Below are positions 4,539 to 44,804 of a DNA stretch of 64,000 nucleotides, piece after piece. The position numbers and the translations under genes are program-made. The stretch is from Thermoplasmata archaeon (lineage in GTDB: Archaea > Thermoplasmatota > Thermoplasmata > UBA10834). Location of the stretch: assembly GCA_020696365.1 (NCBI GenBank), contig JAEHCM010000006.1:19484-83483 (forward strand), read 5' to 3'. The notes below the pieces were generated by a model that worked only from the letters and a program-made list of their open reading frames with translations, was not told the DNA's origin and did not search any database. Every line of letters starts with the position of its first letter. Positions within the stretch are counted from its first letter, which is position 1.

Positions 4539-4637
4539 AATTAATCTTCCGTAGACCATATTGATGGCAGGTATTTTAAAGATAGTGCGACGGCAATCAG
4601 GGCAGGAAAATCCTCCATGCGCCCCTCCGGAGGACTG

Positions 4638-10251: not shown

Positions 10252-10256
10252 TCAAG

Positions 10257-12457: not shown

Positions 12458-12538
12458 CGGCTCAATCTGTCAGATATCTTTTTCAGCAACCAGTGCGATG
12501 CCTAATGCACGCGTCCAGCGAGGGAGACGAAACAACCC

Positions 12539-13753
12539 ATGTCAGGCGACAAGAAGGACGTCGGTGACAAGATCAGAAGAGCCGTCAGGAAGGGAGCGAT
12601 AGAAACGCTTGCGAGACGGCTCATTGCCATCCCGAGCCATTCTGGAGTGCCAACTAGGGAGAAGGAAGCCGCCGAGTTCCTGCATGAGTATCTGTCGGGC
12701 AACGGGGTCAGTTCGAAGCTCAGGAAGGTCGAGAAAGGCAGGCCGAATGTCATAGCGATCGTGAAGGGCACCACAGGTGGAGGTAAGAGCCTCATGTTGA
12801 ACGGCCATCTGGACACCGTGCCGGCGTATAAGATGGACATCCCACCCTTCACCCCCAAGGTGAAGGCAGGCAGATTGTACGGGCGAGGAGCACTCGACAT
12901 GAAGGGTGGCCTCGCCGCGATGGCATGTGCCCTCGTCGCCATCGAGAGATCGCGAGTTGAGCTCCAGTCGGACCTGGTACTCGCCGCGGTCGTTGGCGAG
13001 GAGGAGCGTAGCGAGGGAACCGAGGACATCGTGATGAAGGGCCCGAGGACGGACTTCGCAATCGTAGGCGAGCCGACGAACCTGGAGATTCAGCCGTCCC
13101 ATAGAGGTCTCGAATGGCTCGAGGTCCATGTATATGGAAAGGCCGCCCATGGAGGGCAGTCGGACAATGGAGTGAATGCGATCTCTATGGCCGCGAAGTT
13201 CATAGATGTGGTGGAATCTGAGCTCCTCCCCAAGCTTGGGAAGAAGACCAGCAAGCATACCCTTCCACCAACACTCAACCTCGGGGTCATCAAAGGAGGA
13301 CAGCAACCCAGTTCGGTCGCGGACCACTGCGTTTTGGGAATTGACCGACGGTGGATCCCGGAGGAATCGCTGGACCAGGTGTTCCAGGAGATATACGACG
13401 TCTTCGACACCGTGAAGAAGGACCACCCGAAGTTCAAGGCGAAGCTGAAGCGTGACCCGAGGAGCATGAAAACGATGACGCACGTGCCGAATGTCGTCCC
13501 CTCAGACCATGTTCTCGTGAAGTCCCTCGGTAGCTCTGTGAGGCAGGAGACAGGTAGACGAGCGAAGATCTCGACCTTCTGGGGTTGGACGGACGCTGCA
13601 TTGCTGACCCACTTCGCCAAGACCCCGACGGTCGTGTTCGGCCCTGGCGGAGCCGGTGCTCACGCGAAGACGGAATATGTCAAAGTGAGCGATCTGTCAG
13701 CATGTACGAATGTCTACATGGATGTGGCCACTAGACTTTGCCTGGTCGATTGA
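12539..13753 (+). CDS. M20 family metallopeptidase/deacylase (ArgE/DapE-like)
   Basis: LNGHLDTV, GRGALDMKGG, GEEE, GEPT, C-terminal AH. Confidence 0.9.
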   Translation: MSGDKKDVGDKIRRAVRKGAIETLARRLIAIPSHSGVPTREKEAAEFLHEYLSGNGVSSKLRKVEKGRPNVIAIVKGTTGGGKSLMLNGHLDTVPAYKMDIPPFTPKVKAGRLYGRGALDMKGGLAAMACALVAIERSRVELQSDLVLAAVVGEEERSEGTEDIVMKGPRTDFAIVGEPTNLEIQPSHRGLEWLEVHVYGKAAHGGQSDNGVNAISMAAKFIDVVESELLPKLGKKTSKHTLPPTLNLGVIKGGQQPSSVADHCVLGIDRRWIPEESLDQVFQEIYDVFDTVKKDHPKFKAKLKRDPRSMKTMTHVPNVVPSDHVLVKSLGSSVRQETGRRAKISTFWGWTDAALLTHFAKTPTVVFGPGGAGAHAKTEYVKVSDLSACTNVYMDVATRLCLVD

Positions 13754-13756
13754 AGT

Positions 13757-15385
13757 TCACGAGACAGCAGGCGGTTTTCTGAGGACCAGGCCCGCACGCT
13801 CCTTCAGGTGCTCGCCATTCTGAATCGTCAGTATCCCGTTCACGAACACCTCCGTGATACCCTCGGAATACTGATGCGCATCCGCGAAAGTCGCCCTGTC
13901 CCGTATCGTCAGAGGATCGAACACGACGACATCCGCCATCATACCTTCCTTTATAATTCCTCTGTCGGTGATTCCTAACCTTTGAGCTGGGGACGACGTC
14001 ATCTTCCGTATCATCTCCTCGATCGAGACGACATGCTTGTCGATGACATACCTCCGAATGGCCCGCGGGAACGTACCATACGCTCGGGGATGCTCCGCGA
14101 TGTCCGCCAACGGGCCATACGGAGCGCTCACCTCTCCATCAGATGCGATCGATGAGAGCGGGTGCTTGATCACCCTCACGACATCATCCTCAGACATCTC
14201 GTGGAAGAAGGCTGTGATGTCAAGTTCCTCGTCTATTAGGAGGTCGAAGACCGCGTCCGGTGCATCCTTTCCCATCTCACTCGCTATCTCGCTCACACGC
14301 CTATGGTTATAGGCTTTGTTCGCGGGCTTCTTGAAACCGATCACCTCGATGTCATCCCAGCAATTCTCACCGACGATGTTCTCCCAAGGCACATCGCGAT
14401 TGGTGAAATCCGCCCTGATCCTCGCCCTAGTCTCAGGATCGGCCAATCTGTCGAGGATGGCGCCGCTACCGCCATCCTGAACCCACGGTGGCAGGACAGC
14501 GAACAGATCAGTGCAAGAGGATGTGTAGGGATAGACATCGAACGCAACGTCGACGCCTTTCTTGCGGGCATCCTCGACCATGCGGATGCTTTCTACCACA
14601 AGTCCCCAGTTCGGCCTCCCCCCCGCTTTGTGATGTGATATCTGCACCCGGAGTCGCGCCTCCCGGCCAATGGTAATCGCCTCGTCCACTGACTTGAGGA
14701 GGGTGCTACCCTCTCCTCGTATGTGACTCGCGTATATGCCTCCCAGTGCTCCAGATGTCGAAGCGAGTGCGATGAGCTCCTCCGTAGTGGCATAGCATCC
14801 CGGTGCGTATATGAGCCCGGATGATAGGCCGAAGGCACCCTGCACGATTGATTCTGCGACCAGCTCCTTCATCTCTTCGAGCTGCGAGTCAGTAGGCGGT
14901 ACATCATCTGGACCGATCACGCCCGAACGCACAGTATCCGCCCCCACCAAAGTAGCCACGTTCACAGATGTCCTGAGGTTCTCAAGCCTCAGAAGGTACT
15001 CGTCCATCGTGACCCAATCCACTTGTACGCAATATCTCGTTGCGAAGTCAGCTGTCATCTCCCTCGCAAGGCCTATCAACGGCGCGGCAGACCCCCCGCA
15101 GTTCCCGACGACCTCCGTTGTCACGCCTTGCCTGATCTTGCTCTCCGCAAACGGGCAACCGAGCAACGAGATATCGGAGTGCGTGTGTATGTCGATGAAT
15201 CCTGGACATACGATACTTCCGGCGGCATCGATCGTCACGGCGCCCTTCGAGGTCCCGGGTTCATGGATTCCAGTGACCTTAGTTCCATCAAGCCCGACAT
15301 CCATCTTAACGGAGGGCGCTCCGGTCCCATCGACAAGCTTCCCTCCGACAATAAGGATCGCATGATCACTCGTCATGATGTCCAT
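13757..15385 (-). CDS. N-acyl-D-amino-acid deacylase (amidohydrolase family)
   Basis: PGFIDIHTHSD, GNCG, SHIR, SHHK, SDG, HPRAYGTFPR. Confidence 0.9.
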   Translation of the reverse strand: MDIMTSDHAILIVGGKLVDGTGAPSVKMDVGLDGTKVTGIHEPGTSKGAVTIDAAGSIVCPGFIDIHTHSDISLLGCPFAESKIRQGVTTEVVGNCGGSAAPLIGLAREMTADFATRYCVQVDWVTMDEYLLRLENLRTSVNVATLVGADTVRSGVIGPDDVPPTDSQLEEMKELVAESIVQGAFGLSSGLIYAPGCYATTEELIALASTSGALGGIYASHIRGEGSTLLKSVDEAITIGREARLRVQISHHKAGGRPNWGLVVESIRMVEDARKKGVDVAFDVYPYTSSCTDLFAVLPPWVQDGGSGAILDRLADPETRARIRADFTNRDVPWENIVGENCWDDIEVIGFKKPANKAYNHRRVSEIASEMGKDAPDAVFDLLIDEELDITAFFHEMSEDDVVRVIKHPLSSIASDGEVSAPYGPLADIAEHPRAYGTFPRAIRRYVIDKHVVSIEEMIRKMTSSPAQRLGITDRGIIKEGMMADVVVFDPLTIRDRATFADAHQYSEGITEVFVNGILTIQNGEHLKERAGLVLRKPPAVS

Positions 15386-15545
15386 TGAGTAGATTCTGCG
15401 TGGATTATATAACGGTTCTCAACGCTGGCCAAGTATTGTATCGTGAATCGGTTCTTCGAGTAGACAAATGAGGGTAGCCCTGAATCTCTTCAAGTACCAA
15501 GTCTACGGAAGCGACTTCGTGATGTCACTGTTCATCGGAGGGCCC

Positions 15546-16907
15546 TCAACCGGAGGACTTCATCTTTCTCAATACTTCCTCGCTCACCACGAGTGTTCTC
15601 TCGACGTCCTCGTCCGTGTGCTCGGTACAGGTATAGAATGGCTTGTCAGGGTGGAAGTGGATCCCTCTTGCGAGCAAACCGTAATCGAACTGCATGCGGA
15701 GCTTCGCGTCGAAGTGCATGCAGTCACGATAGCTACGCGGCACCTCGACTTCCTTAGCGAATATTATGTTGAAGGTCGACCCAGGGCCATACGCTATCGC
15801 GTCGAACCCCATCCGGTCGAACAGGTCGTTGAGTCCGTTCTCCAGCTTCGCGGTTATCCTGTTGAGGTACGGGTATGTCTCAGGCTCCTCCAGGACATCG
15901 ATGGTCGCCATGCCGGCGGCGAGAGCGGTCGGGTGGCCGTTGAACGTGCCTCCGTGGAAGACCCTATTGTTCTTGTCCCGAGTGAGAGGGTTGACGACGT
16001 CCATTATGTCTTCCCGCCCGAGGAACGCTCCTGCCGGAAAACCGCCGCCGATTATCTTCCCAAGGCACATCAGGTCCGGTGTAACTCCGTACATCGTCTG
16101 AGCTCCTCCGAGACGGTCCATCCTGAAACCCGACATGACCTCGTCGAATATGAGTATAATTTCGAGTTCCTCTGTCGTCTCACGAACGGCCTTTAGGAAC
16201 TCTGGCTCCGACTTGATGAACCCCCTCTGTACGGGCTCCATTATCACGGCAGCAAGGTCGTTCTTGTGCTCCCTGAGAAGTCTCACCGTGTCCTCGGCAT
16301 CATTGAACGGAAGCACCTGAGTGCTCTGGAGGGTATACTCTGATGTCCCTAGCGAGCACGCAACCGGTTGAGGGGATGTGTAGGGACCTGCGGTCTCCTC
16401 CGACGGCGTAAGGCTGACGAGAGCCTCATCGTAGCAGCCATGATAATGCCCCTCGAACTTGGCCACCCTGTTGCGGCCTTTGAATCCCCTGCACACGCGC
16501 AGGGCGTGGAGCGTAGCCTCAAGGCCGGAGTTCGTGTAACGGACGCGCTCAGCACATGGGAATATCCTGTTGAGCCGCTCGGCCATCAGGCTCTCGAATT
16601 CGTGAGGCGGGCCGAATATCGTCGTGCCGTCCCGGTCCAGCTGTTCCCTGACGGCCTTCATCACTCGGGGATGTCCGTGTCCCAGGATCATCGGCCCGAA
16701 GCAGAGCATGTAATCGATGTACTCGTTCCCGTCCAGGTCCCACAGGTGAGACCCTTTCGCCTTCTTAGCGAACACGGGATACGGATGGTAGAACTTCACG
16801 TTCCCCGTCACGCCTCCTGGGAGGTGCTCTTTCGCCCTCGCGAACCATTCAGCAGTCTTCTTGGTCTTGCTCCGGTATTCCCCGACGGGGTCGAAGGCAG
16901 CGTCCAT
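15546..16907 (-). CDS. Class III PLP aminotransferase, glutamate-1-semialdehyde aminomutase-like
   Basis: KFEGHYHG, FDEVMSGFR, LGKIIGGGFP, GTFNGHP; N-terminal motif PGGVTGNVK differs from the HemL PGGVNSPVR. Confidence 0.85.
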   Translation of the reverse strand: MDAAFDPVGEYRSKTKKTAEWFARAKEHLPGGVTGNVKFYHPYPVFAKKAKGSHLWDLDGNEYIDYMLCFGPMILGHGHPRVMKAVREQLDRDGTTIFGPPHEFESLMAERLNRIFPCAERVRYTNSGLEATLHALRVCRGFKGRNRVAKFEGHYHGCYDEALVSLTPSEETAGPYTSPQPVACSLGTSEYTLQSTQVLPFNDAEDTVRLLREHKNDLAAVIMEPVQRGFIKSEPEFLKAVRETTEELEIILIFDEVMSGFRMDRLGGAQTMYGVTPDLMCLGKIIGGGFPAGAFLGREDIMDVVNPLTRDKNNRVFHGGTFNGHPTALAAGMATIDVLEEPETYPYLNRITAKLENGLNDLFDRMGFDAIAYGPGSTFNIIFAKEVEVPRSYRDCMHFDAKLRMQFDYGLLARGIHFHPDKPFYTCTEHTDEDVERTLVVSEEVLRKMKSSG

Positions 16908-16913: not shown

Positions 16914-17684
16914 TCACCTCAGGTAAATCTTATCGGGATCCAGGGCTCTCAGGGTGGTGACTTCCATCTCCGTTGGCGGAGGAGTCGTCACGAGCTCTTC
17001 GGCCACCTTGACATTCCAAGGGGTGTTCTCCTGGACCTGCTCGATGGTGACCCCTTCGTGCAGGGCTGTGACGGTCATTTCACCCGTCACCTCGTCGAAC
17101 TTGAATGTGCAGAGGTTGGTGATCACCGCATACGGCCCTCCACCCTGGAGCTTGAGCTTTCTCCAGCCCTCCTTGCCGTCGATGAACCCCGGGCTCGTGA
17201 GGAAATCGACCTTCTCAACGAACCTCCTCTTCTCGTGAGGCGTAATCACAATGATCTTCTTCACGTTCGACGCGATATCACAGGCACCCCCGCTCCCTGG
17301 AAGGCGTACCTTCGGGGTCTTGTACGTGCCTATGATAGTCGAGTTGATATTCCCGTACTTGTCTATCTGGGCGCCGCCTAGGAAACCCACATCGATCCTT
17401 CCGCCCTGGAGGTAGTAGGCGAACTGCTCATACATGGAGCAGACGCTCTTGGCACCGCTCACAAGGCAAGGGTCCCCTATCGAGAGCGGCATGCGACTCG
17501 GATTCGACCCGACCGCCCCTGACTCGTAGACCAGCAGCAAGTTGGGCGCCTGCAATTTCTTCGCTAGGTTCGCGGCAAGGTTGGGTATTCCCACTCCGAC
17601 CAACACAGACTCGCGGTCCTTCAGCTCCCTCGCGGCAACGATGACCATCAATTCACTCTGACTCACTTCTAACATCATGCTCAC
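16914..17684 (-). CDS. Family I CoA transferase beta subunit (GctB-like)
   Basis: VYESG with the catalytic Glu, GGAQIDKYGNINST, RLPGSGGA. Confidence 0.88.
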   Translation of the reverse strand: MSMMLEVSQSELMVIVAARELKDRESVLVGVGIPNLAANLAKKLQAPNLLLVYESGAVGSNPSRMPLSIGDPCLVSGAKSVCSMYEQFAYYLQGGRIDVGFLGGAQIDKYGNINSTIIGTYKTPKVRLPGSGGACDIASNVKKIIVITPHEKRRFVEKVDFLTSPGFIDGKEGWRKLKLQGGGPYAVITNLCTFKFDEVTGEMTVTALHEGVTIEQVQENTPWNVKVAEELVTTPPPTEMEVTTLRALDPDKIYLR

Positions 17685-17690: not shown

Positions 17691-18611
17691 TCACACGCTC
17701 CCGTAGTTCACAGGCGAGCTGTACGCCTCCTTGGGACGAAGGCCATCAACCTTCGACGGGGGGAGCTTACTGACGTATTCCGACCTGCTCTCCACTCCGT
17801 GTACCCACTCGTCGATGTACTTCATAGTGCTCTCGTGTTCCTTGGTGATCTCGTCCCACTTGACATAGAACTCGTTGTCCCGGTCGTAGTATCCCTGGAC
17901 GTAGGACGGATGCGCACACCAGGGCTCATGGACGACCGCATGGGATAAGAAATCGGGTACAAGAGTCCTGTTAGGGTCGGACCTTATCACCGACTCGTCC
18001 ACTATCTCCTCGGCGCTTATGATGACCTTCTTCGCGGCGAACGCCGCGTCCTTCTGCTCCCCAATGATCCCCCAGATGTGACAATTGCCGTTGACATCCG
18101 CCCTCTGCACATGCACTACGGCGACATCCGGTTTCAAAGGAGGTACGACAGAGACTTCGTCGCCAGAGTATGGGTCTTTGACGACCTTCATCAATGGATT
18201 CTGTGCGGGGAGGTCTGAGCCCAGGTTCGTCCGCATCGGAAGGAACGGCATGTTCGTGGCTCCCGCGAAGAGTCTTCCCGACAAGCCGAAGTGAGTATAC
18301 TCCTCGATCTCGAGCGGCTTCGGGATACCCTTCTCATGTGCCCTCCTGAAGCATCTCAACGACCCCACGCCGGGGTTTCCGGCGTAGCTGAAGATGAGTC
18401 TCTTCGCGCATCCGGCTGCTATCATCTGGTCGTATATTATGTCTGGGGTGGCCCTGGCCAGGACAAGATCCTTCTTCTTCTGTCTTATGACCTCATGACC
18501 CGCGGCGAACGGTATCATGTGCGTGAATCCTGCAAGGTAGACCGTGTCTCCGTCCTGCACGAATCGGGATACCGCCTCCTTCATCGTCATAGTCTTACTC
18601 GAATCCATCAA
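17691..18611 (-). CDS. Family I CoA transferase alpha subunit (GctA-like)
   Basis: GFTHMIPFAAGHE, HVQRADVNGN, GYYDRD. Confidence 0.88.
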   Translation of the reverse strand: MMDSSKTMTMKEAVSRFVQDGDTVYLAGFTHMIPFAAGHEVIRQKKKDLVLARATPDIIYDQMIAAGCAKRLIFSYAGNPGVGSLRCFRRAHEKGIPKPLEIEEYTHFGLSGRLFAGATNMPFLPMRTNLGSDLPAQNPLMKVVKDPYSGDEVSVVPPLKPDVAVVHVQRADVNGNCHIWGIIGEQKDAAFAAKKVIISAEEIVDESVIRSDPNRTLVPDFLSHAVVHEPWCAHPSYVQGYYDRDNEFYVKWDEITKEHESTMKYIDEWVHGVESRSEYVSKLPPSKVDGLRPKEAYSSPVNYGSV

Positions 18612-18612: not shown

Positions 18613-19038
18613 TCACCTCGATAACTCCTCAGGGATGAACTTGAATCCGTACCTTATGACGCCTTCCTCGCTGTAGACCTTTCTCAGCTCGGTCGAGACG
18701 GGCATATCCATCTTGACGTCCTTGGGGTTGACATCGGCGATCTGACCGATGACCTTCGGCCCTTCCTCCAGTTCCACGATGGCGACGGGGTACATGCCTC
18801 CCGCCTTCTCCTGCTCGGCGAACTCTGGTGGAGCGCCTCCCGCCCCGATCAATACGAACGTGTGGACCTTGCCTTTGCCGCTCAGCTTGACCTCATCGAA
18901 CTCGAAGGAGGCATTGCAGTACTTGCACACACCCTTCGGGGGGAAGTTGACCGCGTCGCACTTCCTGCACCTCTGTCCGACCATTCTGTACCTCTGGGGT
19001 ATGGTTCTCCAGTACATCGGAACTGACACATGCGCCAT
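18613..19038 (-). CDS. DUF35 Zn-ribbon/OB-fold protein
   Basis: CRKC...CKYC, GKVHTF, IRYGFKF; start set at ATG 19038. Confidence 0.9.
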   Translation of the reverse strand: MAHVSVPMYWRTIPQRYRMVGQRCRKCDAVNFPPKGVCKYCNASFEFDEVKLSGKGKVHTFVLIGAGGAPPEFAEQEKAGGMYPVAIVELEEGPKVIGQIADVNPKDVKMDMPVSTELRKVYSEEGVIRYGFKFIPEELSR

Positions 19039-19048
19039 GCTCACCACC

Positions 19049-20074
19049 TCACTTGATAGCTCCCTTGAGTTTCAGATACTGGATATAGTCAATGTACTGC
19101 TTCCTATCAACCTCAGACCTGAGGCCTGGATCAGCCTTTCTCTCTCCGACGATCTTGAAGCTCATCGCGTCACTTGCGGCTCCTGAACCGTAGCTGATGA
19201 CGAGAATCCGGTCACCCATTTTTGCCGCGTCAAGGGCTGCTGCGAGCCCAACAAGAGTCGATGCCGCACCCAGGTCCCCGAGTTCTCCAGCTATCGAGCT
19301 ACTAGCTAGATGAGTGTCCGTGAACCCCAACTTCCGGGCTATCGCACGTGGCAATCGGGCATCTGGCTGTTGTATGACCACATGCGCGTAATCCTCCTGC
19401 TTGGTCCCTATCTTCTCCAGAAGGGAGCGCGCGGCTTTCACGGTGGCTCCGATGAACGATGACTGTGCGTACTTCTTCACGTTCAGGTCGCGTATCAACT
19501 CGTCATCTCGGGGCCTGAATCTCTCTCCGAAATGCTCACACACATACGTCGCATGCCCTTCGAACTCCGCAACAAGATCATCATGAGACAGCACGAACCC
19601 AGCAGCACCCGCCCCGAGCCCGTGCTCGAGCGAAGACCACATACTCGCCTTTGGTGCATCTGCTGCGGCCACCAGCGCACACCCTGACGGGTTCGCGAGA
19701 ACATGCTCCACCCCGGCCATAAGCGCCTCCGTGCCCGCCCTAGACGATGTGGTGTGGTCGGACACGAACGCTCCGTCAGGCATGCCTATGCTGCTCACAA
19801 TCGTGCCCGAAAGGACCTTCTCAACATACGGAGCAGATGTTGATGCTAGCGCGAACCTCGTCACCTTTCCCGGCTCCAAAGGAACCGACGCCAGCGCCCT
19901 CTTCGACACCTTCGACGCGAATGTAAGGATGTCCTCGTCGAAGCCCATCACGGCCTTCTCGCTCACACCCGACGCCTGGAACGACCCCCATGCCTTGGCG
20001 TACTCATCCTTCTTAATCCTCAGTCTCGGGACCGCGACGCCATATCCAGAGATACCTATCGACAGCTTAGTCAC
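19049..20074 (-). CDS. HMG-CoA synthase homologue with substituted catalytic residues (probable pseudoenzyme)
   Basis: HMGCS-like N-terminus and SYGSGAASDA are retained, but SES>STS, ACKAGT>SSRAGT, HQPN>QQPD and GNTYS>GDLGA. Confidence 0.8.
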   Translation of the reverse strand: MTKLSIGISGYGVAVPRLRIKKDEYAKAWGSFQASGVSEKAVMGFDEDILTFASKVSKRALASVPLEPGKVTRFALASTSAPYVEKVLSGTIVSSIGMPDGAFVSDHTTSSRAGTEALMAGVEHVLANPSGCALVAAADAPKASMWSSLEHGLGAGAAGFVLSHDDLVAEFEGHATYVCEHFGERFRPRDDELIRDLNVKKYAQSSFIGATVKAARSLLEKIGTKQEDYAHVVIQQPDARLPRAIARKLGFTDTHLASSSIAGELGDLGAASTLVGLAAALDAAKMGDRILVISYGSGAASDAMSFKIVGERKADPGLRSEVDRKQYIDYIQYLKLKGAIK

Positions 20075-21237
20075 CTCCTCAGAATCGATACGGAAACCGT
20101 GCCGCCGGAGCCGCCCACGTTGTGAATGAGTCCTATCTCCGCATCTCTCACCTGTCTGGCAGGCTTATCGACCGTCCCCCTGAGCTGGTTGAACATCTCA
20201 TAGGCCTGTCCGGTGCCAGTGGCGCCGATGGGGTGCCCTTTGGATTTGAGTCCCCCGCTCGCATTCACCGGTCTATCGCCATCGATCTGGGTGTGGCCAT
20301 CTTCGACGAACTGTCCTGCCTTGCCCTTCTCGCAGAAGCCCAGGTCCTCACACGCGAGAAGCTCTGCTATCGTGAAACAGTCGTGGACCTCGGCCAGCTG
20401 TATATCCTTCGCCGAGAGCCCGGCCATATCGTAGGCATTAGCAGCCGCTCTCTTCGTCCCTTCCAAAGTGACCGTGTTGATCCTGTCGTGGATCGCGAGA
20501 TAATCGCTCGACGAACCGAATCCAGCAATGTAGATGGGCGTGTCCGTAAACTCCTTCGCAAGCTCGGCATCGCAAACGAGCACCGATGACGCACCGTCAG
20601 TGGTAGAGCAGCAGTCGAACAGGTTCAGAGGATAGGCCACATAGGGGCTCTTCACGGCTTTCTCCAAGGTTATTTCCTTCTGGAACTGCGCCTTGGGGTT
20701 CTGCGCGCCATTCTTGTGATTCTTGACCGCTACCGCGGACAGGTGCTCCCTCGTCGTCCCGAACTCGTGCATGTGCCTATGGGCGATGAGGGCGTACAGT
20801 CCGGCGAAAGTCGTCCCTGCGAGTCGCTCGTATTCCGTATCTCCCGAGACGCCAAGCCAGTACTTCTGCTTCACACCAGAGACATCTGTCATCTTCTCAA
20901 CGCCGCCAGCAAGCACCACGTCGTGGGCTCCAGAGAGGACGTCCATGCACGCGGAGATGAGCGCATATCCTCCGGAAGCGCAGGCGTTCTCGACTCTCAC
21001 GGTGTGTATGTAGGGAAGGCCGACGAACTCCGACACAAGGGCAGACATGTTACCCAGCTGGAATCCGCCCGAGCCAAGGTTGCCGACATAGGCCGCTCCA
21101 ATGCGTCTGGAATCCATTCCCTTGTCAACGCTCTTCACCATGTCCTGATACGATTCTAGAAACAGCTCTTTGATGCCTTTCTCGGGAAAATCACCGTACC
21201 TACTCTGTCCGGCTCCAACGATCGCGACCTTTTTCAT
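20071..21237 (-). CDS. Archaeal-type thiolase (acetyl-CoA acetyltransferase family)
   Basis: VENACASG, EVHDCF, GHPIGATG. Confidence 0.92.
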   Translation of the reverse strand: MKKVAIVGAGQSRYGDFPEKGIKELFLESYQDMVKSVDKGMDSRRIGAAYVGNLGSGGFQLGNMSALVSEFVGLPYIHTVRVENACASGGYALISACMDVLSGAHDVVLAGGVEKMTDVSGVKQKYWLGVSGDTEYERLAGTTFAGLYALIAHRHMHEFGTTREHLSAVAVKNHKNGAQNPKAQFQKEITLEKAVKSPYVAYPLNLFDCCSTTDGASSVLVCDAELAKEFTDTPIYIAGFGSSSDYLAIHDRINTVTLEGTKRAAANAYDMAGLSAKDIQLAEVHDCFTIAELLACEDLGFCEKGKAGQFVEDGHTQIDGDRPVNASGGLKSKGHPIGATGTGQAYEMFNQLRGTVDKPARQVRDAEIGLIHNVGGSGGTVSVSILRR

Positions 21238-21354
21238 GTTGATTCCCTCGCCTCGCGCGCTGATGCGCGCCCGTACTGAAAAACTGTCATACGGGCATCA
21301 ATCAACGGCAGATTCTGCGAGTCTGGATTGGCATGTGTTGAAACAAGAGCTCGG

Positions 21355-21362
21355 ATATATAA
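21355..21362 (-). promoter_or_regulatory. Candidate TATA box of the thiolase operon
   Basis: TTATATAT on the minus strand, about 120 nt upstream of the thiolase ATG. Confidence 0.45.
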
Positions 21363-21558
21363 CGATTCGCGACCAACACTCACTACAACTCGCGCTTTTT
21401 AGACACTGCAATACGAATCACGATACCTCCCGTCGCAGAAGGATTACTGCGGAATTCGTATTCCTTAATCGACCTTCGTAACACTAGCCTACCCTCCGTG
21501 GGCAGAGGCTAAATAGAGAGTGAGACAATCGCCTTTTTGAGTCGATTGGACGAAGAGA

Positions 21559-22842
21559 ATGAACCTGATGCCACCTCGCACTGAAATATCGCTTTGGAAG
21601 GATGTCACGCCCGAACAGTGGAACGACTGGAAGTGGCAGGCGAGGAACAGGATTACCAAAGTGGAGGAACTCAAGGAAGTCATCAACCTAACGCCAGAAG
21701 AGGAAGAAGGCGTCCGCGAGTCTCTGAAGATACTGAGGATGGCCATCACACCGTACTACGCTTCCCTCATGGATCCTGCCGACCCTTACTGCCCGGTGAG
21801 AAAGCAAGCGGTGCCGACCATCAAGGAGCTGGACTTCGGAGAGGCGGACATGGAGGATCCACTGTTCGAGGATGTCGACTCCCCTGTTCACGGACTCACA
21901 CACCGATATCCCGACAAGGTGCTGTTCCTGATCACAGACCAGTGTGGAATGTACTGCAGACATTGCACGAGACGGCGCCTTGCGGGACAGACAGACCACG
22001 AGCGTGACAAGAGCACAATAGACGCCGCAATCAGGTACATAGCTGAGCACGACGAGGTCAGAGATGTCCTCCTCTCTGGCGGCGACCCGCTCCTGGTATC
22101 AGACGAAAGGCTTGAGGACATCATCTCCCGTCTCCAGAAGATAGACCATGTGGACATCGTCAGGATTGGTAGCAGGGCGCCTTGCACGCTCCCGCAGAGG
22201 GTTACGCCGAAGCTATGCGAGCTGCTGAAGAAGCACCATCCCATATGGCTAAACACGCACTTCAACCATCCAAAGGAGATCACACCAGAATCCAAGAAAG
22301 CCGTGGAGATGCTGGCCGATGCAGGTGTGCCCGTCGGGAACCAGTCTGTCCTGTTAAAAGGGGTCAACGACTGCCCCACGATCATGAAGAAGCTGGTGCA
22401 GGATCTCGTCAAGATAAGATGTCGTCCATATTACTTCTATCAATGCGACATATCGAGAGGCATAGAGCATTTCAGGACATCAGTCGCGAAGGGCATCGAG
22501 ATTTCCGAAGCCCTGAGGGGGCACACATCCGGATTCGCGGTTCCGGACTTCATCCTGGACGCTCCAGGTGGCGGAGGCAAGATACCTCTTGCCCCACAGT
22601 ACCTGATATCGATGTCAGACAAGCGTGTCGTCGTCCGGAATTACGAGGGTGGTATATTCCAGTACCCTGAGCCGAAAGACAGGGTCAGCGTCTGTCCACC
22701 CACCTGCAAGATGTGCGACGAATACTCGAAGATCGAAAGCAGGGAAGGCGTGGCCGGCGTTCTCTCAGGGCAGAAATTCGCGCTGATACCAGAAGGAAGC
22801 GCCCGTGCACAACGCCGCGAGAAGTTCGGAAAGAAGACGTGA
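21559..22842 (+). CDS. kamA: Lysine 2,3-aminomutase (radical SAM/PLP)
   Basis: CGMYCRHC, YQCD and LDAPGGGGK (lysine-type Asp residues plus the PLP Lys). Confidence 0.92.
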   Translation: MNLMPPRTEISLWKDVTPEQWNDWKWQARNRITKVEELKEVINLTPEEEEGVRESLKILRMAITPYYASLMDPADPYCPVRKQAVPTIKELDFGEADMEDPLFEDVDSPVHGLTHRYPDKVLFLITDQCGMYCRHCTRRRLAGQTDHERDKSTIDAAIRYIAEHDEVRDVLLSGGDPLLVSDERLEDIISRLQKIDHVDIVRIGSRAPCTLPQRVTPKLCELLKKHHPIWLNTHFNHPKEITPESKKAVEMLADAGVPVGNQSVLLKGVNDCPTIMKKLVQDLVKIRCRPYYFYQCDISRGIEHFRTSVAKGIEISEALRGHTSGFAVPDFILDAPGGGGKIPLAPQYLISMSDKRVVVRNYEGGIFQYPEPKDRVSVCPPTCKMCDEYSKIESREGVAGVLSGQKFALIPEGSARAQRREKFGKKT

Positions 22843-22933: not shown

Positions 22934-24130
22934 ATGGAAAGGAACATTCTGATTGAGGAACTCACGCACACCCCGGTCGAGCAGCAGGTAATCGAATTCG
23001 TCGAGCGAAAAGGCATCGGCCATCCTGATTCGATAGCTGACGGCCTTGCAGAGAGCGTCAGCAGAGCACTATGTAAGATGTATCTCGAGCGGTACGACCG
23101 CATACTACACCACAACACTGACGAGACACAGATTGTTGGCGGTCAGTCCGCACCTAAGTTCGGAGGAGGAGCGATCCTCGAACCGGTGTACATCCTCCTC
23201 GTTGGCAGAGCGACGACCAATGTCGACGGGGAACGGCTCCCGTACAGGACATGCGCCATGAAGGCGGCCTATTCATATCTTGAACGAACCTGCAAGAGCC
23301 TTGATGTCGATTGGGGGGTTGTCCTCGATTGCATGATAGGTGAGGGCAGTGTCGACCTCAGAGGTGTGTATGAGACACAGCGACGACTCGCTAACGACAC
23401 ATCCTTCGGCGTCGGCTTCGCTCCTTTGAGCGAGACGGAGCAGATAACTCTCAACACGGAACGGTACATCAACGGGGATTTGTGTAAGATCCTTCCTGAG
23501 ATAGGTGAGGACGTCAAAGTCATGAGCTTCAGGAACGGATCCAAGATTGACATAACAATCGCTACCGCGATTGTGTCCTCTAAAGTCTCGGACAAAGACC
23601 ACTACAAGAGCGTGATTGAACAATGCACGAGCAAGGTCGCTGACTTCGCGTCGAAATACACTGACAGAGACCTCAGCGTTTTCGTCAACACGGCAGATGA
23701 TTACAGTAAGGACATCTACTATCTGACCGTCTCGGGTCTTTCGATGGAGAACGGTGACGATGGCTCTGTCGGCAGGGGCAACCGTGCGAACGGCCTCATC
23801 ACCCCCATGAGGCCAATGAGCATGGAAGCTTCTGCCGGGAAGAACCCCGTGACCCATGTTGGAAAGTTGTACAACATACTGTCGAGCCAGGTGGCAAAGA
23901 GGATTTATGATATGGCTGGCGGAGACATACTGGAAGTTAACACGAGGATTCTCTCCCAGATCGGCAAACCCATCGACTATCCACATGCGGCCAATGCGAA
24001 CATCATATACGCCCCGAATGTCGACAAAGCGAAGTATGACCGGGAGGCCCGCGCCATATACGATGAAATGCTCCAGAACATGGACCGCCTAACGATGGAC
24101 ATCGTCGAAGGAAAGATCACGGTGTTCTGA
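22934..24130 (+). CDS. mat: Archaeal methionine adenosyltransferase
   Basis: VERKGIGHPDSIAD, ENGDDGSVGRGNR, GKNPVTHVGKLYN. Confidence 0.95.
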   Translation: MERNILIEELTHTPVEQQVIEFVERKGIGHPDSIADGLAESVSRALCKMYLERYDRILHHNTDETQIVGGQSAPKFGGGAILEPVYILLVGRATTNVDGERLPYRTCAMKAAYSYLERTCKSLDVDWGVVLDCMIGEGSVDLRGVYETQRRLANDTSFGVGFAPLSETEQITLNTERYINGDLCKILPEIGEDVKVMSFRNGSKIDITIATAIVSSKVSDKDHYKSVIEQCTSKVADFASKYTDRDLSVFVNTADDYSKDIYYLTVSGLSMENGDDGSVGRGNRANGLITPMRPMSMEASAGKNPVTHVGKLYNILSSQVAKRIYDMAGGDILEVNTRILSQIGKPIDYPHAANANIIYAPNVDKAKYDREARAIYDEMLQNMDRLTMDIVEGKITVF

Positions 24131-24199: not shown

Positions 24200-27100
24200 T
24201 CACTCCGGTTTCTCCAGTTGGTCTTCTCTTGTCCTCAATAACTGAGCCAACTGAGCTAGCTCTTCCTCGATGCTGTGCAGGCGCTCCCACTCGGATTCGA
24301 GCCGCTGCTCGTCATGCCTGAGCGCCTCCTCGCGCTCAGCGAGGCGCAGGTATGTGTCATCCAACTCTGACTTCTTACGCTCGAGCTCCTCTATGGTCTT
24401 CCCATCCACGGTCGAGAGGCCTTCCTTCGCGCCCTCTAACCTGTTCCAGAGATCCTCCACCTCGACCCTCTCCTTTTCCAGACGGTCGATCTCCAGAACT
24501 ATGGCACTCTCCCTGCCCTCGAGATCTCGCTCCCTCATCTTGACAGATTCCTCCATCTGCCTGAGGTCCACCTCACGCTTGAGCGCCGCCTCGTCCGATA
24601 ACTCTTGCCTGCCGGATCGCGCCGCCGCGGCCTCCGCCTCCTTGGTCAGCTCGGCTACCCGCTCGCGGACCTCCTCCTCGACCTTCTCGCGCCTAGATTG
24701 CAGCTCGAGCCTCCATGTCTCGAGCTCTTCCCTCAGTTGCTCGAGTCCGCGCTCCTTCTCTTCGACATGACCGCGCTCCGTCTCAGTCTCCACCTGTAGC
24801 AGCTCGAACTCGTTCAGGTTCCTCTCGAACTCCAACATGCGCTGATCGAGTTCACGCTCCTTCACATCGGTCTCCTCTTTCTTGTGGACGATCTCATCGG
24901 CCACGCTCTTGTATTCGTCTGCCGACTGAGCCATCTCATCCTCACGCTTGCTGATTGCGTGCTCTGCCGTCTCCAGCCTCGCTCTCAACTCGTTTATCTC
25001 AGACTCCTTTCCTGCTATGATAAGGGATTTCTCGGAAATCTCAGATTCACTCCTTGCAAGGGCTTCGTCCTTCACAGCGAGGCGCGCCTGGGTCTCGGCG
25101 AGCTCCGCTGACGCCTCCTGGAGTCCGGTGCGCTCCTGCTCGAGTTCCTCGCGCATGCGCTCGAGCGCGGTTCTCTCACCCTCCATCTTGGTCTGCTCGG
25201 CCGCCTCGAGGCTGGAGAACGCTGCCTCGCGGGCATCAAGCTCGGACTCCCGCTTGCGAAGAGTCTCTTGAAGTGATTCCAACTCCCCGCGTCGCTCCTC
25301 GGCCGATTCAGCCTCCGTTTGGAGACGGGAGTTCGTCTCGCTCTCAGACCGTTCTAACTCTGCCTTCCACGTCTCGATCTCTTCGGACATGGATCTGAGT
25401 TCGGCATCTTTGGCATCCTGGGAGGACTTCAACTGCTCGATTTGTGACTCACGCTGCTGGATCTCGGCCTCCCTCTCAGCGAGTCTGGAAGCCTTTGCCT
25501 CAAGTTCCGACTCACGCTCCGCAACCTGCTCGACCGACCGTCCCAGGGCAACTGCATTATCCTTCTTCTCCTCGAGAAGCCTAGTCTCCTCCTCCATTCG
25601 AGATTTGGACTCATCCAAGGCTGCGCGTTCATCGACCAAGCGAGCTCTATCCTCCTCGATTGACGCCGCCATGCTTCGAATCTCATCTTCCCGAGCGGAT
25701 AGCTCATTCTTCTGCTCGGTGACAGCAGCCGTTGCAGCCGCCAACTCGGCGGCTCTCGACTCTGCCTCCTTTGACATTTCATCGATCGACGAGCTTCGCG
25801 TCTCGTGATGCGATTCCATATCGCCCACTGCGGCCTCGCGCTCTTCTATTGCACGAACCTTCTCGGCGAGCTCCTGTTGAAGAGTCGCCAGCTCAGCCAT
25901 CTTGGTCCCGAGTTCGTCCGACTTCGAGTCGAAGTCTCCATGCCTCTCCTCCACTGTGGCATGCAATCTCGCGAGCTCCTCCTTCTCGGCCTCCAGACGC
26001 TCTCTCTCCCCACTGACAGAGGACCTCTCAGCGTCCGCGTCCCGCCTCATCGACTCGATATCGTTGAGGGCCTGGTCACGCTCCGACAAGAACGCCTGCC
26101 TCTCATTCTCCAGACTAGTCCTTTCAGCTTCGACTTCTCTTCGCATGCCGTCAAGAGACGCCTTGTCTAGCTCCACCGCCTTCTGCGATTCTTCAAGCTG
26201 GGTCTCCATGTCTTCGATGGAGCGGCGCGTCTCGGCGATCCTCTCCTCTCTCTCATCGACCTCGGCCTGGAGCTGGGTCATCTCGGACTTCATCTTCTCA
26301 AGGCTGGCGACCTCCTCCTGGGTCTTCTCCCGCTCGATGCACATGCTCTCGTCGAAAGATCGTCGCTCTCCTTCCAAAGATTCTATCTTCGACGTGATCT
26401 CAGCAGTGCGCGACTCGAGGTCGGACTCCCTCTCCCGGACCTGAATCTCCCTTGACGAGAGATCCGCGTCTCGTTGAGCCGCACCCGCCGCCATGTCCTC
26501 CAGTTCGCTCTTCCACGAGTCCAGCTCCTGCCTCACCCGTTCGTCCTCTGCCATGCGCTCCTCGACCGCTGACTTCTCTGACTCGAGCTTCTGGAGTTCG
26601 TCGTCGAGCGCGGACTTCCGAGAGGCCAATTCAGTCTGCTCGTTATCTATCGATGCTACATGCTCAGCGACCTTGCGCTCCCTCTCCTCGACGGTAGTCC
26701 TCATGTTCTGGAGCATTTGGGCCGTGGACCGAAGGTCCTCCTGCCTCGCAAGGATGTCCCTCTCTAGTGTCTCAAACTCCTCGTTCTTCTGCCCCTGTTC
26801 CCGCCTAAGCTGGTCGAGCTCTACACGCTCCTCCGCCATCCGAAGCTCCGAAGCGGCAACATCGCTGGACCTCTTGTCGAGGATGGCCTGCATCTCCTGG
26901 ATTGAGTAATCCCTCTCTTCCAGCTCTTTCCGGTCTTCCTCCAGCTTCGCCGATAGCCCGTCAAGCTCCTTCTGCCTCGGCCCCGTTGTACTGTCGAACT
27001 GCTCCTTCTCTTCGTTCAAAGCAATCTTGGCCTGCTCAACCGACCTGCGGTCCGCATCAATCTGTTCCCTGAGACGGTCACGCTCCTCCGTGAACTGCTC

Positions 27101-29278
27101 GCGCTCCGTCCTGAGCTCCTCGGCCTGGGTTTTCACCTCTCCACTGAGGCGCTCAGCCTCAGCCTTCGTCTCGGTTATCCCCCGCTCGCGCGCCTCCAGT
27201 TCTTCTGAAGTCTCCTTCAGGCTAGCGCCCCTCTCCTTCAGCTGTATCTCCAATTCCTCGAGCGACGCCGACCTCGCCTCGGTGTCCCTTCGGAACCGCT
27301 CCTCATCTCCATGCACGCGTTCCTCACGTTTGTCCAATTCCAGGGACTTCTGTGTGGTCTCCGCCTTTCTAGACTCTATCTCCTCGGAAAACCTCCGTTG
27401 CTCTTCGTCTAATGACGCCTCCCTGTCCTTCGCAGCCGTCTCCGCAAGTGCCGCCTTGTCGACCGCCTGCCGCGCATCGGACTCCCGGGCGGCTACCTCC
27501 CTTTCTCGGGCGGCCGCCTCCTCCTGCTTCAACGATATCTGCTCCTCGCGCTTGACCAACGATTGCTCACTTGCGGTGAGTCTCGTTCTGAGGTTCTCCA
27601 ATTCCCTTGTCAGGTTTGAAAGTGATTCCTCGCGCTCAGATAGCTCCTTCGCCGAGCGTTCCACCGCAGCTCTCGCCCTGCTCGATTCAGCCTCGTGAGA
27701 AGTCTTGAGCCGCTCCAGCCCCTCACTGTCCGAATCGACGAGAGCCCTCGCCTTCTCAATCTCCACCTTCTCGATCGCCAGACCGTGCTCCTTCTCAGCA
27801 AGTCGAGCCTCGATCGACCTAGCATCCTCCAACGATTTCGCCGTCTGGCGCTCCTTATCTTGAATGCGGCTGAGCTGTTCATCTAGGGCCTCCCGGTCTG
27901 CCTCGACTCTCTCCGTCAGATCGGCCAGCTTGCTGCGGTCTGCCTCTAGACGCTTCTGCTCGTTCTGCAGTTCCATCAAACGCTGCTCCGTCTTCAGGGT
28001 GACAATTCTGTCGAGCTGATGATACCTGGATTCAACTTCTCGCTCCATCGCCTGCAGGCGCGATTTCTTCGAGTCAAGCTCACCCATCTCCTTCACGAGC
28101 TTCGAACGAATCTTGGATGTGAGCGCCGCCTCCTCGCGGGTCAGTCTTATCCTGAACTCCTCGAGCTCCTTCCTGGTCTGCCGCACTCTCACAAGCGTCT
28201 GTCTAATCTCCTGACGGTCCTTCTCCAGCGCCTCACGCTCGGCCGAGACCGCCTTCGCCTGCGCAGACAGCTTTTCCTCTTTCGCGGAGAGAGTTCTGCG
28301 CTCGTCCGCAATCTTCTCCATCTCGATGATCATCTCATCTTGCTTCAACTCAACGATTAGCCTGTTCTCGACGTCGGGCATGGGCGCGACCTGCTCGACT
28401 CCGTCGGCGGAGAAGACCTCCAACTCCCTCTGGATGGAGGCAAGCTTCGAAGACTCAAGCGTCGACGCCTTCAAAGACACAATGCAGACCGCCTTCTGGA
28501 CCGCTATCTGGTCCCTGATCGTCTGGACCAGCCGCAACACGCTCACGAATTTGTTGTTAGTAATGAGATACTCAAGTGAATCTATAAGCACCAACTGTCC
28601 GTTTCCCTCTTCGAGGAATCGCCGAATCGTCAGGGTGAGACGCTCGAGGTCCTTCGGACCGATCGCCTCGTCACTCATGGCGTTGGTCAACCAGTAGATG
28701 GGCACGTCTCCGAGTTCAAGAGCCTTCCTGAGATTCCTCGGATAGGTCCTCGTCACGATCATTCCCACTTTTCCCTGAGCCTTGCACGCCAGGAAAAGAG
28801 AGTATGCTAGTTCTGGCTTCTCCTCCTCGATAAGATAGGTCATAGAAGGCTCGAGCTTCTTCACCAGGTCGTCGTGGGTAAGTGCACGGTCGCCTTCCTC
28901 TACCGGCAGACCGTCAGGCACAGAAATGGATTCGTCCGACGCAACTGACTCATCAGCAGGCGGCGCGTCAGCAGATTCCGATTCTCTCTCGGTAGGCTCA
29001 GAGGCTACTTCAGAGTCTGTAGTCCCAATCTCGGGCGCCCTCGCAGCGTCTGGAACAGGCTCCCTCTCGGGCACGGAGTCTCCCACCTTGTCAGACTCTT
29101 CCGTCACCTCGGGTTCCTCGCGGCCCGTCTCCTCCGATTCCTCGGGCTGGGGCTCGTCCCGCTCCGCCCCATCAGGGAGGGTATCCTCTGGTTTCTCTTC
29201 CGGAGCGTCATCTTCCTCAATCTCTTCCTCCGGCTCGGACCGCGATGCTATCTCCCTAGCTCTGTCCCTCAAGCCCAT
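24200..29278 (-). CDS. Giant coiled-coil protein with acidic N-terminus and DUF835 domain (~1690 aa)
   Basis: Long uninterrupted ORF; DUF835-like segment at about 28412-28855 (YLIEEEKP...VLIDSLEYLITNN); the rest is E/R/L-rich helical sequence. Confidence 0.85.
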   Translation of the reverse strand: MGLRDRAREIASRSEPEEEIEEDDAPEEKPEDTLPDGAERDEPQPEESEETGREEPEVTEESDKVGDSVPEREPVPDAARAPEIGTTDSEVASEPTERESESADAPPADESVASDESISVPDGLPVEEGDRALTHDDLVKKLEPSMTYLIEEEKPELAYSLFLACKAQGKVGMIVTRTYPRNLRKALELGDVPIYWLTNAMSDEAIGPKDLERLTLTIRRFLEEGNGQLVLIDSLEYLITNNKFVSVLRLVQTIRDQIAVQKAVCIVSLKASTLESSKLASIQRELEVFSADGVEQVAPMPDVENRLIVELKQDEMIIEMEKIADERRTLSAKEEKLSAQAKAVSAEREALEKDRQEIRQTLVRVRQTRKELEEFRIRLTREEAALTSKIRSKLVKEMGELDSKKSRLQAMEREVESRYHQLDRIVTLKTEQRLMELQNEQKRLEADRSKLADLTERVEADREALDEQLSRIQDKERQTAKSLEDARSIEARLAEKEHGLAIEKVEIEKARALVDSDSEGLERLKTSHEAESSRARAAVERSAKELSEREESLSNLTRELENLRTRLTASEQSLVKREEQISLKQEEAAAREREVAARESDARQAVDKAALAETAAKDREASLDEEQRRFSEEIESRKAETTQKSLELDKREERVHGDEERFRRDTEARSASLEELEIQLKERGASLKETSEELEARERGITETKAEAERLSGEVKTQAEELRTEREQFTEERDRLREQIDADRRSVEQAKIALNEEKEQFDSTTGPRQKELDGLSAKLEEDRKELEERDYSIQEMQAILDKRSSDVAASELRMAEERVELDQLRREQGQKNEEFETLERDILARQEDLRSTAQMLQNMRTTVEERERKVAEHVASIDNEQTELASRKSALDDELQKLESEKSAVEERMAEDERVRQELDSWKSELEDMAAGAAQRDADLSSREIQVRERESDLESRTAEITSKIESLEGERRSFDESMCIEREKTQEEVASLEKMKSEMTQLQAEVDEREERIAETRRSIEDMETQLEESQKAVELDKASLDGMRREVEAERTSLENERQAFLSERDQALNDIESMRRDADAERSSVSGERERLEAEKEELARLHATVEERHGDFDSKSDELGTKMAELATLQQELAEKVRAIEEREAAVGDMESHHETRSSSIDEMSKEAESRAAELAAATAAVTEQKNELSAREDEIRSMAASIEEDRARLVDERAALDESKSRMEEETRLLEEKKDNAVALGRSVEQVAERESELEAKASRLAEREAEIQQRESQIEQLKSSQDAKDAELRSMSEEIETWKAELERSESETNSRLQTEAESAEERRGELESLQETLRKRESELDAREAAFSSLEAAEQTKMEGERTALERMREELEQERTGLQEASAELAETQARLAVKDEALARSESEISEKSLIIAGKESEINELRARLETAEHAISKREDEMAQSADEYKSVADEIVHKKEETDVKERELDQRMLEFERNLNEFELLQVETETERGHVEEKERGLEQLREELETWRLELQSRREKVEEEVRERVAELTKEAEAAAARSGRQELSDEAALKREVDLRQMEESVKMRERDLEGRESAIVLEIDRLEKERVEVEDLWNRLEGAKEGLSTVDGKTIEELERKKSELDDTYLRLAEREEALRHDEQRLESEWERLHSIEEELAQLAQLLRTREDQLEKPE

Positions 29279-29375
29279 GATCGCAATGCTCCGCGTGCCA
29301 AACACGGTGTCAGGGGGGTGACGCACCGTGCTTCTGTCTCTGTGAGATATATGTTGCCATACATTAAATCATACG

Positions 29376-44652: not shown

Positions 44653-44804
44653 CGGGTCCTCCACGAACTAATGCGGATATATCCTTTTTGTCTACCGCTT
44701 GGAACCCAGGTGGAAAGACATATGCCGAAATGCCAGCTCGCTCAGTCCCGCAACAATAATTAGTCACGAGCGAGTTGATGTGTACCGATAAACGGGTTGG
44801 TCAC

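Follow-up and report, generated by a model that had tools for sequence, protein, structure and literature searches.

We analyzed a 64,000-nucleotide stretch of DNA, referred to here as the window, from a 1.84-Mb metagenome-assembled genome (MAG; G000, contig C64; 86% complete) of an uncultured Thermoplasmata archaeon; near-identical sequence was found in marine-sediment, sediment, subsurface, and permafrost metagenomes. The window encodes a triad formed by a thiolase, a homologue of hydroxymethylglutaryl-CoA (HMG-CoA) synthase (HMGCS, or HMGS) that has lost the catalytic residues of this enzyme, and a DUF35 protein. The triad leads a run of six open reading frames (ORFs) on the minus strand, spaced by 0–6 bp, that continues with the two subunits of a CoA-transferase and a class-III aminotransferase:

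20071–21237, minus strand: SCP-x/archaeal-type thiolase (Pfam Thiolase_N/Thiolase_C_1; NCBIfam NF004720, 487 bits)
19049–20074, minus strand: HMGCS-like pseudoenzyme (NCBIfam NF003274, 260 bits; aligned to 6ESQ and PhlA)
18613–19047, minus strand: DUF35 protein with a zinc ribbon and an OB fold (Pfam zf-ChsH2, OB_ChsH2_C)
17691–18611, minus strand: CoA-transferase alpha, GctA type (Pfam CoA_trans; PDB 1poi_A, 149 bits)
16914–17684, minus strand: CoA-transferase beta, GctB-like (Pfam CoA_trans, 137 bits; 82–84% identity in relatives)
15546–16907, minus strand: HemL-like class-III aminotransferase (Pfam Aminotran_3)

The GTG start of the HMGCS-like gene overlaps the TGA of the thiolase gene, a single base pair separates the DUF35 gene from that of CoA-transferase alpha, and Shine-Dalgarno-like GGAGG sequences lie ahead of the internal starts of the operon. 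The HMGCS-like gene is thus placed in translational coupling within a conserved operon.

Catalytic residues, selection, and fold of the triad

An alignment of the HMGCS-like protein with M. thermolithotrophicus HMGCS (6ESQ), the canonical HMGCS of the same genome, and PhlA revealed that the catalytic tetrad Glu/Cys/His/Asn is replaced by Thr79/Ser111/Gln235/Asp267, while the Asn of the HQPN motif is replaced by Asp238. Each substitution listed in an initial annotation of this DNA (SES to STS, ACKAGT to SSRAGT, HQPN to QQPD, GNTYS to GDLGA) is present, and the ORF is, as also stated there, full length and free of frameshifts. Across 119 homologues of 64–100% identity, the Thr79 and Asp238 columns hold T and D in every sequence, and the Gln235 and Asp267 columns hold Q and D in 118; the Ser111 column is occupied by S, T, A, or G (30, 86, 2, and 1 sequences, respectively). 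This uniformity of the replacements indicates that the loss is fixed and not due to chance. Judged by its residues, HMG-CoA synthesis by the known mechanism would be impossible for a protein from which the tetrad is absent.

The two partners retain their motifs, as initially annotated. The thiolase has Cys86 (CxS), His285 and Cys287 (HDCF), and His335 (GHP), and the three motifs are intact in 11 of 11 thiolases of such triads (that of the window and 10 from related triads). The DUF35 protein keeps both CxxC pairs of its zinc ribbon (Cys27/30 and Cys41/44). In the PDB, the best match of the thiolase is 6esq_A (304 bits, versus 121–123 bits for PhlC) and that of the DUF35 protein is 6esq_E (95 bits, versus 39–40 bits for PhlB); the best sequence matches of the HMGCS-like protein are PhlA-type chains (144–148 bits). 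We predict that the HMGCS-like protein is a non-catalytic structural partner and that the DUF35 protein connects the two thiolase-fold subunits.

The ratio of nonsynonymous to synonymous substitution rates (dN/dS) was determined between the window and two congeneric genomes, at unsaturated dS values of 0.37 and 0.79. It amounts to 0.17 and 0.09, respectively, for the HMGCS-like gene, 0.06 and 0.035 for the thiolase, 0.095 and 0.07 for DUF35, and 0.06–0.07 for the canonical HMGCS gene of the same genome. The HMGCS-like protein changes 2–3 times faster than its partners, despite purifying selection. An AlphaFold2 model of the monomer, generated from a 27-sequence alignment, has a predicted local distance difference test score (pLDDT) of 88.5 and a predicted template modeling score (pTM) of 0.91, and its best structural matches are the HMGCS of 6ESQ (template modeling score, TM, 0.88), PhlA (TM 0.85), and MucA (TM 0.84). 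The HMGCS-like protein is a pseudoenzyme, not a pseudogene: the earlier proposal that the synthase homologue is kept although non-catalytic is borne out by selection and by the retained fold, and the relaxed selection considered as its alternative was not what the dN/dS test gave.

Two further observations concern this gene. A small metatranscriptome (run X22), obtained in a study where the window strain is abundant, contains contigs that match window positions 13890–14126, in an amidohydrolase gene beyond the operon, and 19713–19969, in the HMGCS-like gene, at 100% identity; they weakly hint at in-situ transcription. In a genome of the same genus, the HMGCS-like copy (G005:C50:7693-8709) carries one in-frame TGA, which may stem from a sequencing error or reflect local loss in this 60%-complete MAG.

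Distribution of the triad and the canonical complex

Among 25 genomes of one family of the GTDB taxonomy (f1), 21 have the HMGCS-like copy, compared with none of 16 genomes in 14 further families of that class. Canonical HMGCS copies are only 28–32% identical to it. Cluster representatives at 50% identity were searched exhaustively, which revealed more than 100 clusters at 30–54% identity to the HMGCS-like protein, nearly all without the tetrad and with a recurrent T-x-x-D signature, many of which are HMGS-DUF35 fusions of 470–490 amino acids (aa). In a maximum-likelihood tree, the window HMGCS-like family (support 100) lies inside a tetrad-less clade with Shimodaira–Hasegawa-like approximate likelihood ratio test (SH-aLRT) support of 99 (52 rows) and 97 (68 rows), and the canonical sequences with the E-C-H-N tetrad, together with the PhlA/MucA clade, fall on the opposite side of the drawn midpoint root. 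The thiolase tree recovers the same grouping, with the window thiolase in a separate clade (support 100). A search for related loci from an 8-sequence alignment returned mostly canonical HMGCS loci; the nearest named relatives are found in Desulfocucumis, Desulfotruncus alcoholivorax DSM 16058, a Clostridiales MAG, an unclassified bacterium, and a Helarchaeota MAG. All of them have the gene order thiolase, HMGCS-like, DUF35, and their thiolases and DUF35 proteins are 51–61% and 42–59% identical to those of the window, compared to 48% and 33% for the canonical pair of the genome itself.

All three subunits belong to an old and widespread tetrad-less lineage, and a single Thermoplasmata family probably owes the triad to acquisition by its ancestor. 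A recent duplication of the resident complex within the lineage, as one form of the duplication first supposed, is ruled out by the 28–32% identity to canonical HMGCS and is also countered by the grouping of the three subunits with triads of Bacillota and Helarchaeota and by the different gene order.

The related triad of D. alcoholivorax DSM 16058 (NZ_AUMW01000011.1; L014, 6793–9428; HMGCS-like protein 40% and thiolase 60% identical) is flanked by genes for acyl-CoA dehydrogenase, enoyl-CoA hydratase, and 3-hydroxyacyl-CoA dehydrogenase on one side and by EtfBA on the other. Its position inside a β-oxidation cluster is consistent with a degradative ketothiolase. D. alcoholivorax is a cultured bacterium and a possible experimental stand-in.

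The initial annotation had predicted that a second, active HMGCS supplies the HMG-CoA reductase and mevalonate kinase of the window. Both genes are present, and a family search of the genome revealed a second locus at G000:C22:173868-177902 with the order HMGCS, thiolase, DUF35. The HMGCS there (564 bits) has intact ESxxY, ACKAGT, HQPN, and GNTYS motifs.

Locus L001, 1486–2784, minus strand: canonical HMGCS
Locus L001, 317–1489, minus strand: thiolase adjoining the canonical HMGCS
Locus L001, 1–315, minus strand: DUF35 protein
Locus L151 (G000:C11), 4393–5616, plus strand: classical PF00108 thiolase
Window, 44775–46085, plus strand: HMG-CoA reductase
Window, 43726–44664, minus strand: GHMP kinase, likely mevalonate kinase

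The thiolase beside this live HMGCS is catalytically dead, which had not been anticipated: the Cys of CxS is replaced by Gly (EAAGASGG), HDCF by HDNY, and GHP by GDP. It is still under purifying selection (dN/dS 0.04–0.09). We surveyed 37 canonical loci from the window genome and sampled relatives, of which 36 have a readable thiolase; that of family f13 was not recovered and was left unscored. The canonical thiolase is dead in 11 of the 14 scored families (f1, f2, f4, f6–f12, and f15) and intact only in f3, f5, and f14. Sampled genomes of the 11 families carry a classical PF00108 thiolase (270–339 bits), except for two incomplete MAGs, G032 (74% complete), which has none, and G007 (73% complete), which has only a 110-bit fragment; no classical enzyme was found in the three genomes whose canonical thiolase is live. 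The classical thiolase of the window genome has its Cys, His, and Cys motifs.

Read from their motifs, two mirror-image complexes appear to coexist in one genome, each with one dead partner. The stand-alone classical thiolase probably feeds the mevalonate pathway, and the dead canonical thiolase looks like a case of non-orthologous displacement in which the pseudo-thiolase was retained as a structural subunit. That the window thiolase is the sole live enzyme feeding this pathway is ruled out by the classical thiolase at G000:C11, and is also countered by the dead canonical thiolases of related families without the triad. Mevalonate entry is covered elsewhere, because the genome has an intact HMGCS and a classical thiolase.

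The HMGCS-like pseudoenzyme scores above the cut-off of NF003274 (260 versus 244 bits) and is therefore recorded as an HMG-CoA synthase. The names of its homologues at NCBI and JGI are nearly all ‘hydroxymethylglutaryl-CoA synthase’, a systematic misannotation. Metabolic reconstructions of these archaea hence count two mevalonate-entry enzymes where the true number is one.

Related complexes and a candidate lysine route

About 1,000 bacterial loci, as well as PhlA and MucA, have an HMGS-like subunit without the E-C-H-N tetrad (Liao et al., Nat Commun 2026, PMC12960953). The complex of P. fluorescens, which combines a dead HMGS with an HDxF-retaining ACAT, makes neither HMG-CoA nor acetoacetyl-CoA and cleaves acetoacetyl-CoA, a reaction that needs the HDxF His; all activity resides in the thiolase subunit (PMC12960953). 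The Friedel-Crafts acylases PhlC and MucB also lack HDxF, the catalytic subunit MucB is inactive without its partners, and an interfacial CoA chamber persists in PhlACB and MucABC (PMC12960953). The Pseudomonas complex was termed an evolutionary intermediate, with no defined pathway yet recruiting it (PMC12960953).

Like PfACAT/HMGS-DUF35, the window triad combines a tetrad-less HMGS-like subunit with a thiolase that keeps Cys, HDxF, and GHx and with a DUF35 protein, and, as in the ~1,000 ‘minimal’ bacterial loci, it has no polyketide synthase (PKS) or nonribosomal peptide synthetase (NRPS) neighbors. In contrast to the Pseudomonas complex, whose HMGS and DUF35 moieties are fused, the window triad is archaeal, consists of three separate genes, coexists with a canonical mevalonate-entry locus, and shares its surroundings with a CoA-transferase, a HemL-like transaminase, and a lysine 2,3-aminomutase; its activity is predicted. 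It has the three folds and the adjacent genes of the archaeal thiolase/HMGCS/DUF35 complex of 6ESQ, and differs from it in the absent tetrad, in the separate, well-supported clades of its HMGCS-like protein and thiolase, and in gene order, which is HMGCS, thiolase, DUF35 in the canonical loci examined. With PhlACB (P. protegens, 5M3K/5MG5) and MucABC (S. macacae, 9VBO), the triad has in common a tripartite build around a non-catalytic HMGS-like subunit, and its His-to-Gln and Asn-to-Asp replacements are identical to those of PhlA. Unlike the window thiolase with its HDCF, PhlC and MucB are devoid of HDxF, use non-CoA acceptors, and have PKS/NRPS neighbors, and the clade of PhlA and MucA is not that of the window protein.

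Because the window thiolase keeps HDxF, the triad is best assigned to the thiolytic PfACAT type and not to the Friedel-Crafts acylases of the PhlACB type. By sequence-level criteria, it belongs to the tetrad-less thiolytic HMGS/ACAT/DUF35 kind, in an archaeal and unfused form, and would be neither a canonical mevalonate-entry complex nor a PhlACB/MucABC acylase. The earlier PhlABC-like label thus holds for the architecture, the shared Gln and Asp replacements, and the best PDB sequence matches, and fails for the acylase type, given the HDxF motif and the different clade. Of the two activities first suggested for the thiolase, the degradative one is favored by the Pseudomonas biochemistry and the operon context, and the acyltransferase one is disfavored by the retained HDxF. 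A tetrad-less HMGS/ACAT/DUF35 complex, so far described only in bacteria, is therefore also encoded in archaea, beside the canonical complex.

The operon is divergent from the genes for lysine 2,3-aminomutase (kamA) and S-adenosylmethionine (SAM) synthetase (MAT):

21238–21558: divergent intergenic region separating the thiolase operon and kamA (321 bp; relatives show the same divergent layout)
21559–22842, plus strand: lysine 2,3-aminomutase, a KamA/AblA-type radical-SAM enzyme (TIGR03820, 604 bits, cut-off 525)
22934–24130, plus strand: archaeal SAM synthetase, MAT (Pfam AdoMet_Synthase, 545 bits; adjacency to kamA conserved)

This arrangement is conserved in several MAGs in which the HMGCS-like protein is only 64–69% identical. 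KamA above the cut-off occurs in 25 of 25 f1 genomes and in no other sampled family, and the triad is likewise confined to f1. The SAM synthetase downstream of kamA probably supplies the KamA cofactor. A second KamA paralogue, also above the cut-off (591 bits; G000:C44:151680-152891; L152, 6636–8483, minus strand), lies in a setting unrelated to that of kamA, beside a diphthamide synthase and an ABC-2 transporter, and most f1 genomes have two KamA copies.

CoA-transferase beta contains a YESG motif in which Glu54 is the expected catalytic glutamate. The aminotransferase falls below both curated hemL cut-offs (NF000818, 393 versus 398; TIGR00713, 371 versus 527), and its PDB matches are GSAM (304 bits) and β-transaminases (170–182 bits), making it a candidate β-aminoacyl-CoA transaminase. 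The one known acyl-CoA β-transaminase is Kat, a HemL-like 3-aminobutyryl-CoA aminotransferase that acts in a variant lysine fermentation and is encoded beside an acetoacetyl-CoA thiolase (Perret et al. 2011, PMC3149608). The Kat route resembles the one predicted for the window in its KamA start, its HemL-like transaminase making a 3-oxoacyl-CoA, and a neighboring thiolase cleaving the product. Unlike the window, it depends on Kdd, Kce, and a B12-dependent β-lysine 5,6-aminomutase, and its thiolase substrate is acetoacetyl-CoA. KamD (PF09043) was not found in four f1 genomes, in a search made without a positive control and with the window genome 86% complete, and of these four, G011 alone has BKACE/Kce (PF05853), at a position away from the operon. 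The failure to find the classical lysine-fermentation genes implies that β-lysine (C6) would be processed directly by the GctAB-like CoA-transferase. Synthesis of the osmolyte N-ε-acetyl-β-lysine was considered as another role for KamA and ruled out, as AblB was not found in the window genome (best match 22 bits).

Taken together, these data point to a tetrad-less thiolytic complex in a lysine operon, to which we assign a probability of roughly 0.55. The SCP-x-type thiolase (Cys86, His285, His335) would be its only catalyst, and the HMGCS-like protein, devoid of synthase activity, would be kept as an obligate structural partner. The two subunits probably still form a fused CoA-binding chamber, with DUF35 predicted to clamp them together. 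The complex would act in the degradative direction, cleaving a 3-oxoacyl-CoA with CoA, and its likeliest substrate is 6-amino-3-oxohexanoyl-CoA. This reading is degradative because the P. fluorescens biochemistry on the same architecture and the operon context match. In the presumed order of steps, KamA would convert L-lysine to β-lysine, and the GctAB-like CoA-transferase β-lysine to β-lysyl-CoA; the HemL-like transaminase would then turn the 3-amino group into a 3-oxo group, yielding 6-amino-3-oxohexanoyl-CoA, which the triad would cleave to acetyl-CoA and 4-aminobutyryl-CoA. The CoA-transferase could return the CoA of 4-aminobutyryl-CoA to the next β-lysine.

The operon thus probably serves lysine breakdown rather than membrane-lipid synthesis, and its conservation would give the tetrad-less complex a concrete pathway context, namely β-lysine breakdown without a B12-dependent aminomutase. 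A more far-reaching proposal, which we hold tentatively and at less than even odds, is that the triad cleaves the C-C bond in a B12-independent lysine catabolism not described before, in which the pocket of the pseudo-HMGCS holds or channels a cyclization-prone amino-oxo-acyl-CoA. If this proposal is true, the triad and its mirror-image complex would together show that heteromeric thiolase-fold complexes repeatedly keep one partner as a purely structural, obligate subunit.

Several points weigh against the proposed lysine-degrading complex. In the HMGCS-like family, conservation peaks in the former active-site loops (mean conservation 0.89–0.95), with the motifs DHTTS[S/T]RAGTE, ASTSAPY, VVIQQPDA, and LGDLGAAS, and Thr79, Ser110, Asp238, and Asp267 vary little or not at all. 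Constraint thus still acts on the pocket, which could accommodate a ligand or a new activity. Thiolases are reversible, so that the direction of the triad reaction follows from context alone. A literature search gave no paper with β-lysyl-CoA or 6-amino-3-oxohexanoyl-CoA as intermediates, the amidohydrolase and the diaminopimelate (DAP) epimerase of relatives have no place in the scheme, and the uncontrolled KamD search bears on the same side. Finally, the RNA evidence of run X22 consists of a few short contigs and is possibly DNA carry-over.

Competing explanations and neighboring genes

The same thiolytic architecture may act on plain acetoacetyl-CoA, derived either from Kat-like transamination of 3-aminobutyryl-CoA, as in Cloacimonas, or from acetoacetate and the CoA-transferase. 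Acetoacetyl-CoA is what the only assayed relative, PfACAT/HMGS-DUF35, cleaves, Kat is itself HemL-like and located next to an acetoacetyl-CoA thiolase, and the best PDB match of the window thiolase (6esq_A) is an acetoacetyl-CoA thiolase. However, the upstream steps to 3-aminobutyryl-CoA were not found (KamD in 0 of 4 and BKACE/Kce in 1 of 4 f1 genomes), and a classical thiolase for acetoacetyl-CoA is already present in the genome. We consider this substrate unlikely.

The conserved loops also raise the question of whether the HMGCS-like subunit is inert. Its conserved pocket (Thr79, Ser110, Glu172, Glu180, Arg185, and Asp267) might be catalytic or substrate-holding, making the triad a two-step complex; in a set of 26 diverse tetrad-less sequences, Thr79, Ser110, and Asp267 are each conserved at 90% or more or do not vary, and the CoA chamber is retained in PhlACB and MucABC. 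The variability of two former catalytic columns, Cys (S/T/A/G in the family) and His (Q, H, P, S, D, Y, G, or T across the tetrad-less clade), argues against a new catalytic role, and in the assayed bacterial complexes the thiolase subunit holds all activity. Moreover, members whose gene contexts are unrelated have the same conserved set, in keeping with a structural or CoA-binding role, and the fold core and the CoA chamber may account for the conservation of the loops. A catalytic or substrate-holding HMGCS-like subunit is accordingly a distinctly unlikely prospect.

Operation in the condensing direction, either joining 4-aminobutyryl-CoA and acetyl-CoA towards β-lysine and lysine or serving as a ketothiolase/DUF35 module of an archaeal fatty-acid-synthase type, strikes us as improbable, at about one chance in ten or so by our judgment of the context. 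Thiolases and KamA are reversible, the cluster of relatives contains DAP epimerase, a lysine-biosynthesis gene, and archaeal fatty-acid synthesis has been proposed to use ketothiolase/DUF35 pairs (bioRxiv 10.1101/2024.07.05.601840). Nevertheless, a thiolase needs a pulling step for the Claisen condensation to be favorable, and the HMGCS that would pull is dead in the window triad; given acetyl-CoA, the assayed Pseudomonas homologue did not form acetoacetyl-CoA, the nearest relative in bacteria is part of a β-oxidation cluster, reductase and dehydratase genes are absent from the operon, and the flanks encode peptide uptake and peptidases.

A C-acyltransferase of the PhlACB/MucABC Friedel-Crafts type, acetylating a small non-CoA acceptor, would account for the PhlA-type best PDB matches of the HMGCS-like protein and for the Gln and Asp replacements common to PhlA. 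The HDxF of the window thiolase, absent from PhlC and MucB, its much lower score against PhlC than against the archaeal thiolase, the different clade of PhlA and MucA, and the absence of PKS/NRPS neighbors render it very improbable. A decaying pseudogene from a duplicated mevalonate-entry operon, as the loss of all catalytic residues, the 2–3 times faster protein change, and the TGA-bearing copy might suggest, is refuted by dN/dS values of 0.09–0.17, fixed replacement residues, a confident fold, translational coupling in a conserved operon, and an intact reading frame in about 120 cluster representatives among the matches listed.

Further genes flank the operon and the kamA–MAT pair:

13757–15385, minus strand: D-aminoacylase-like amidohydrolase (Pfam Amidohydro_3; NF006560, 181 bits; present in L003, L005, and L006)
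9292–13753, plus strand: two Opp-type ABC ATPases, an S58 (DmpA-like) aminopeptidase, and an M20 peptidase (same flank in L003, L005, and L006)

The peptide-uptake and peptidase genes fit a catabolic setting. The amidohydrolase gene lies 160 bp beyond the aminotransferase gene (gap 15386–15545). In three related loci, the corresponding interval contains a DAP-epimerase gene read from the opposite strand (L003, 14562–15425; L005, 14536–15396; L006, 14509–15369); the window has the 160-bp gap only. On the other side, a 1,708-aa protein with DUF835 and coiled-coil regions adjoins the SAM synthetase (window 24200–29326, minus strand), and L005 and L006 have an ORF of 1,626–1,762 aa at its position.

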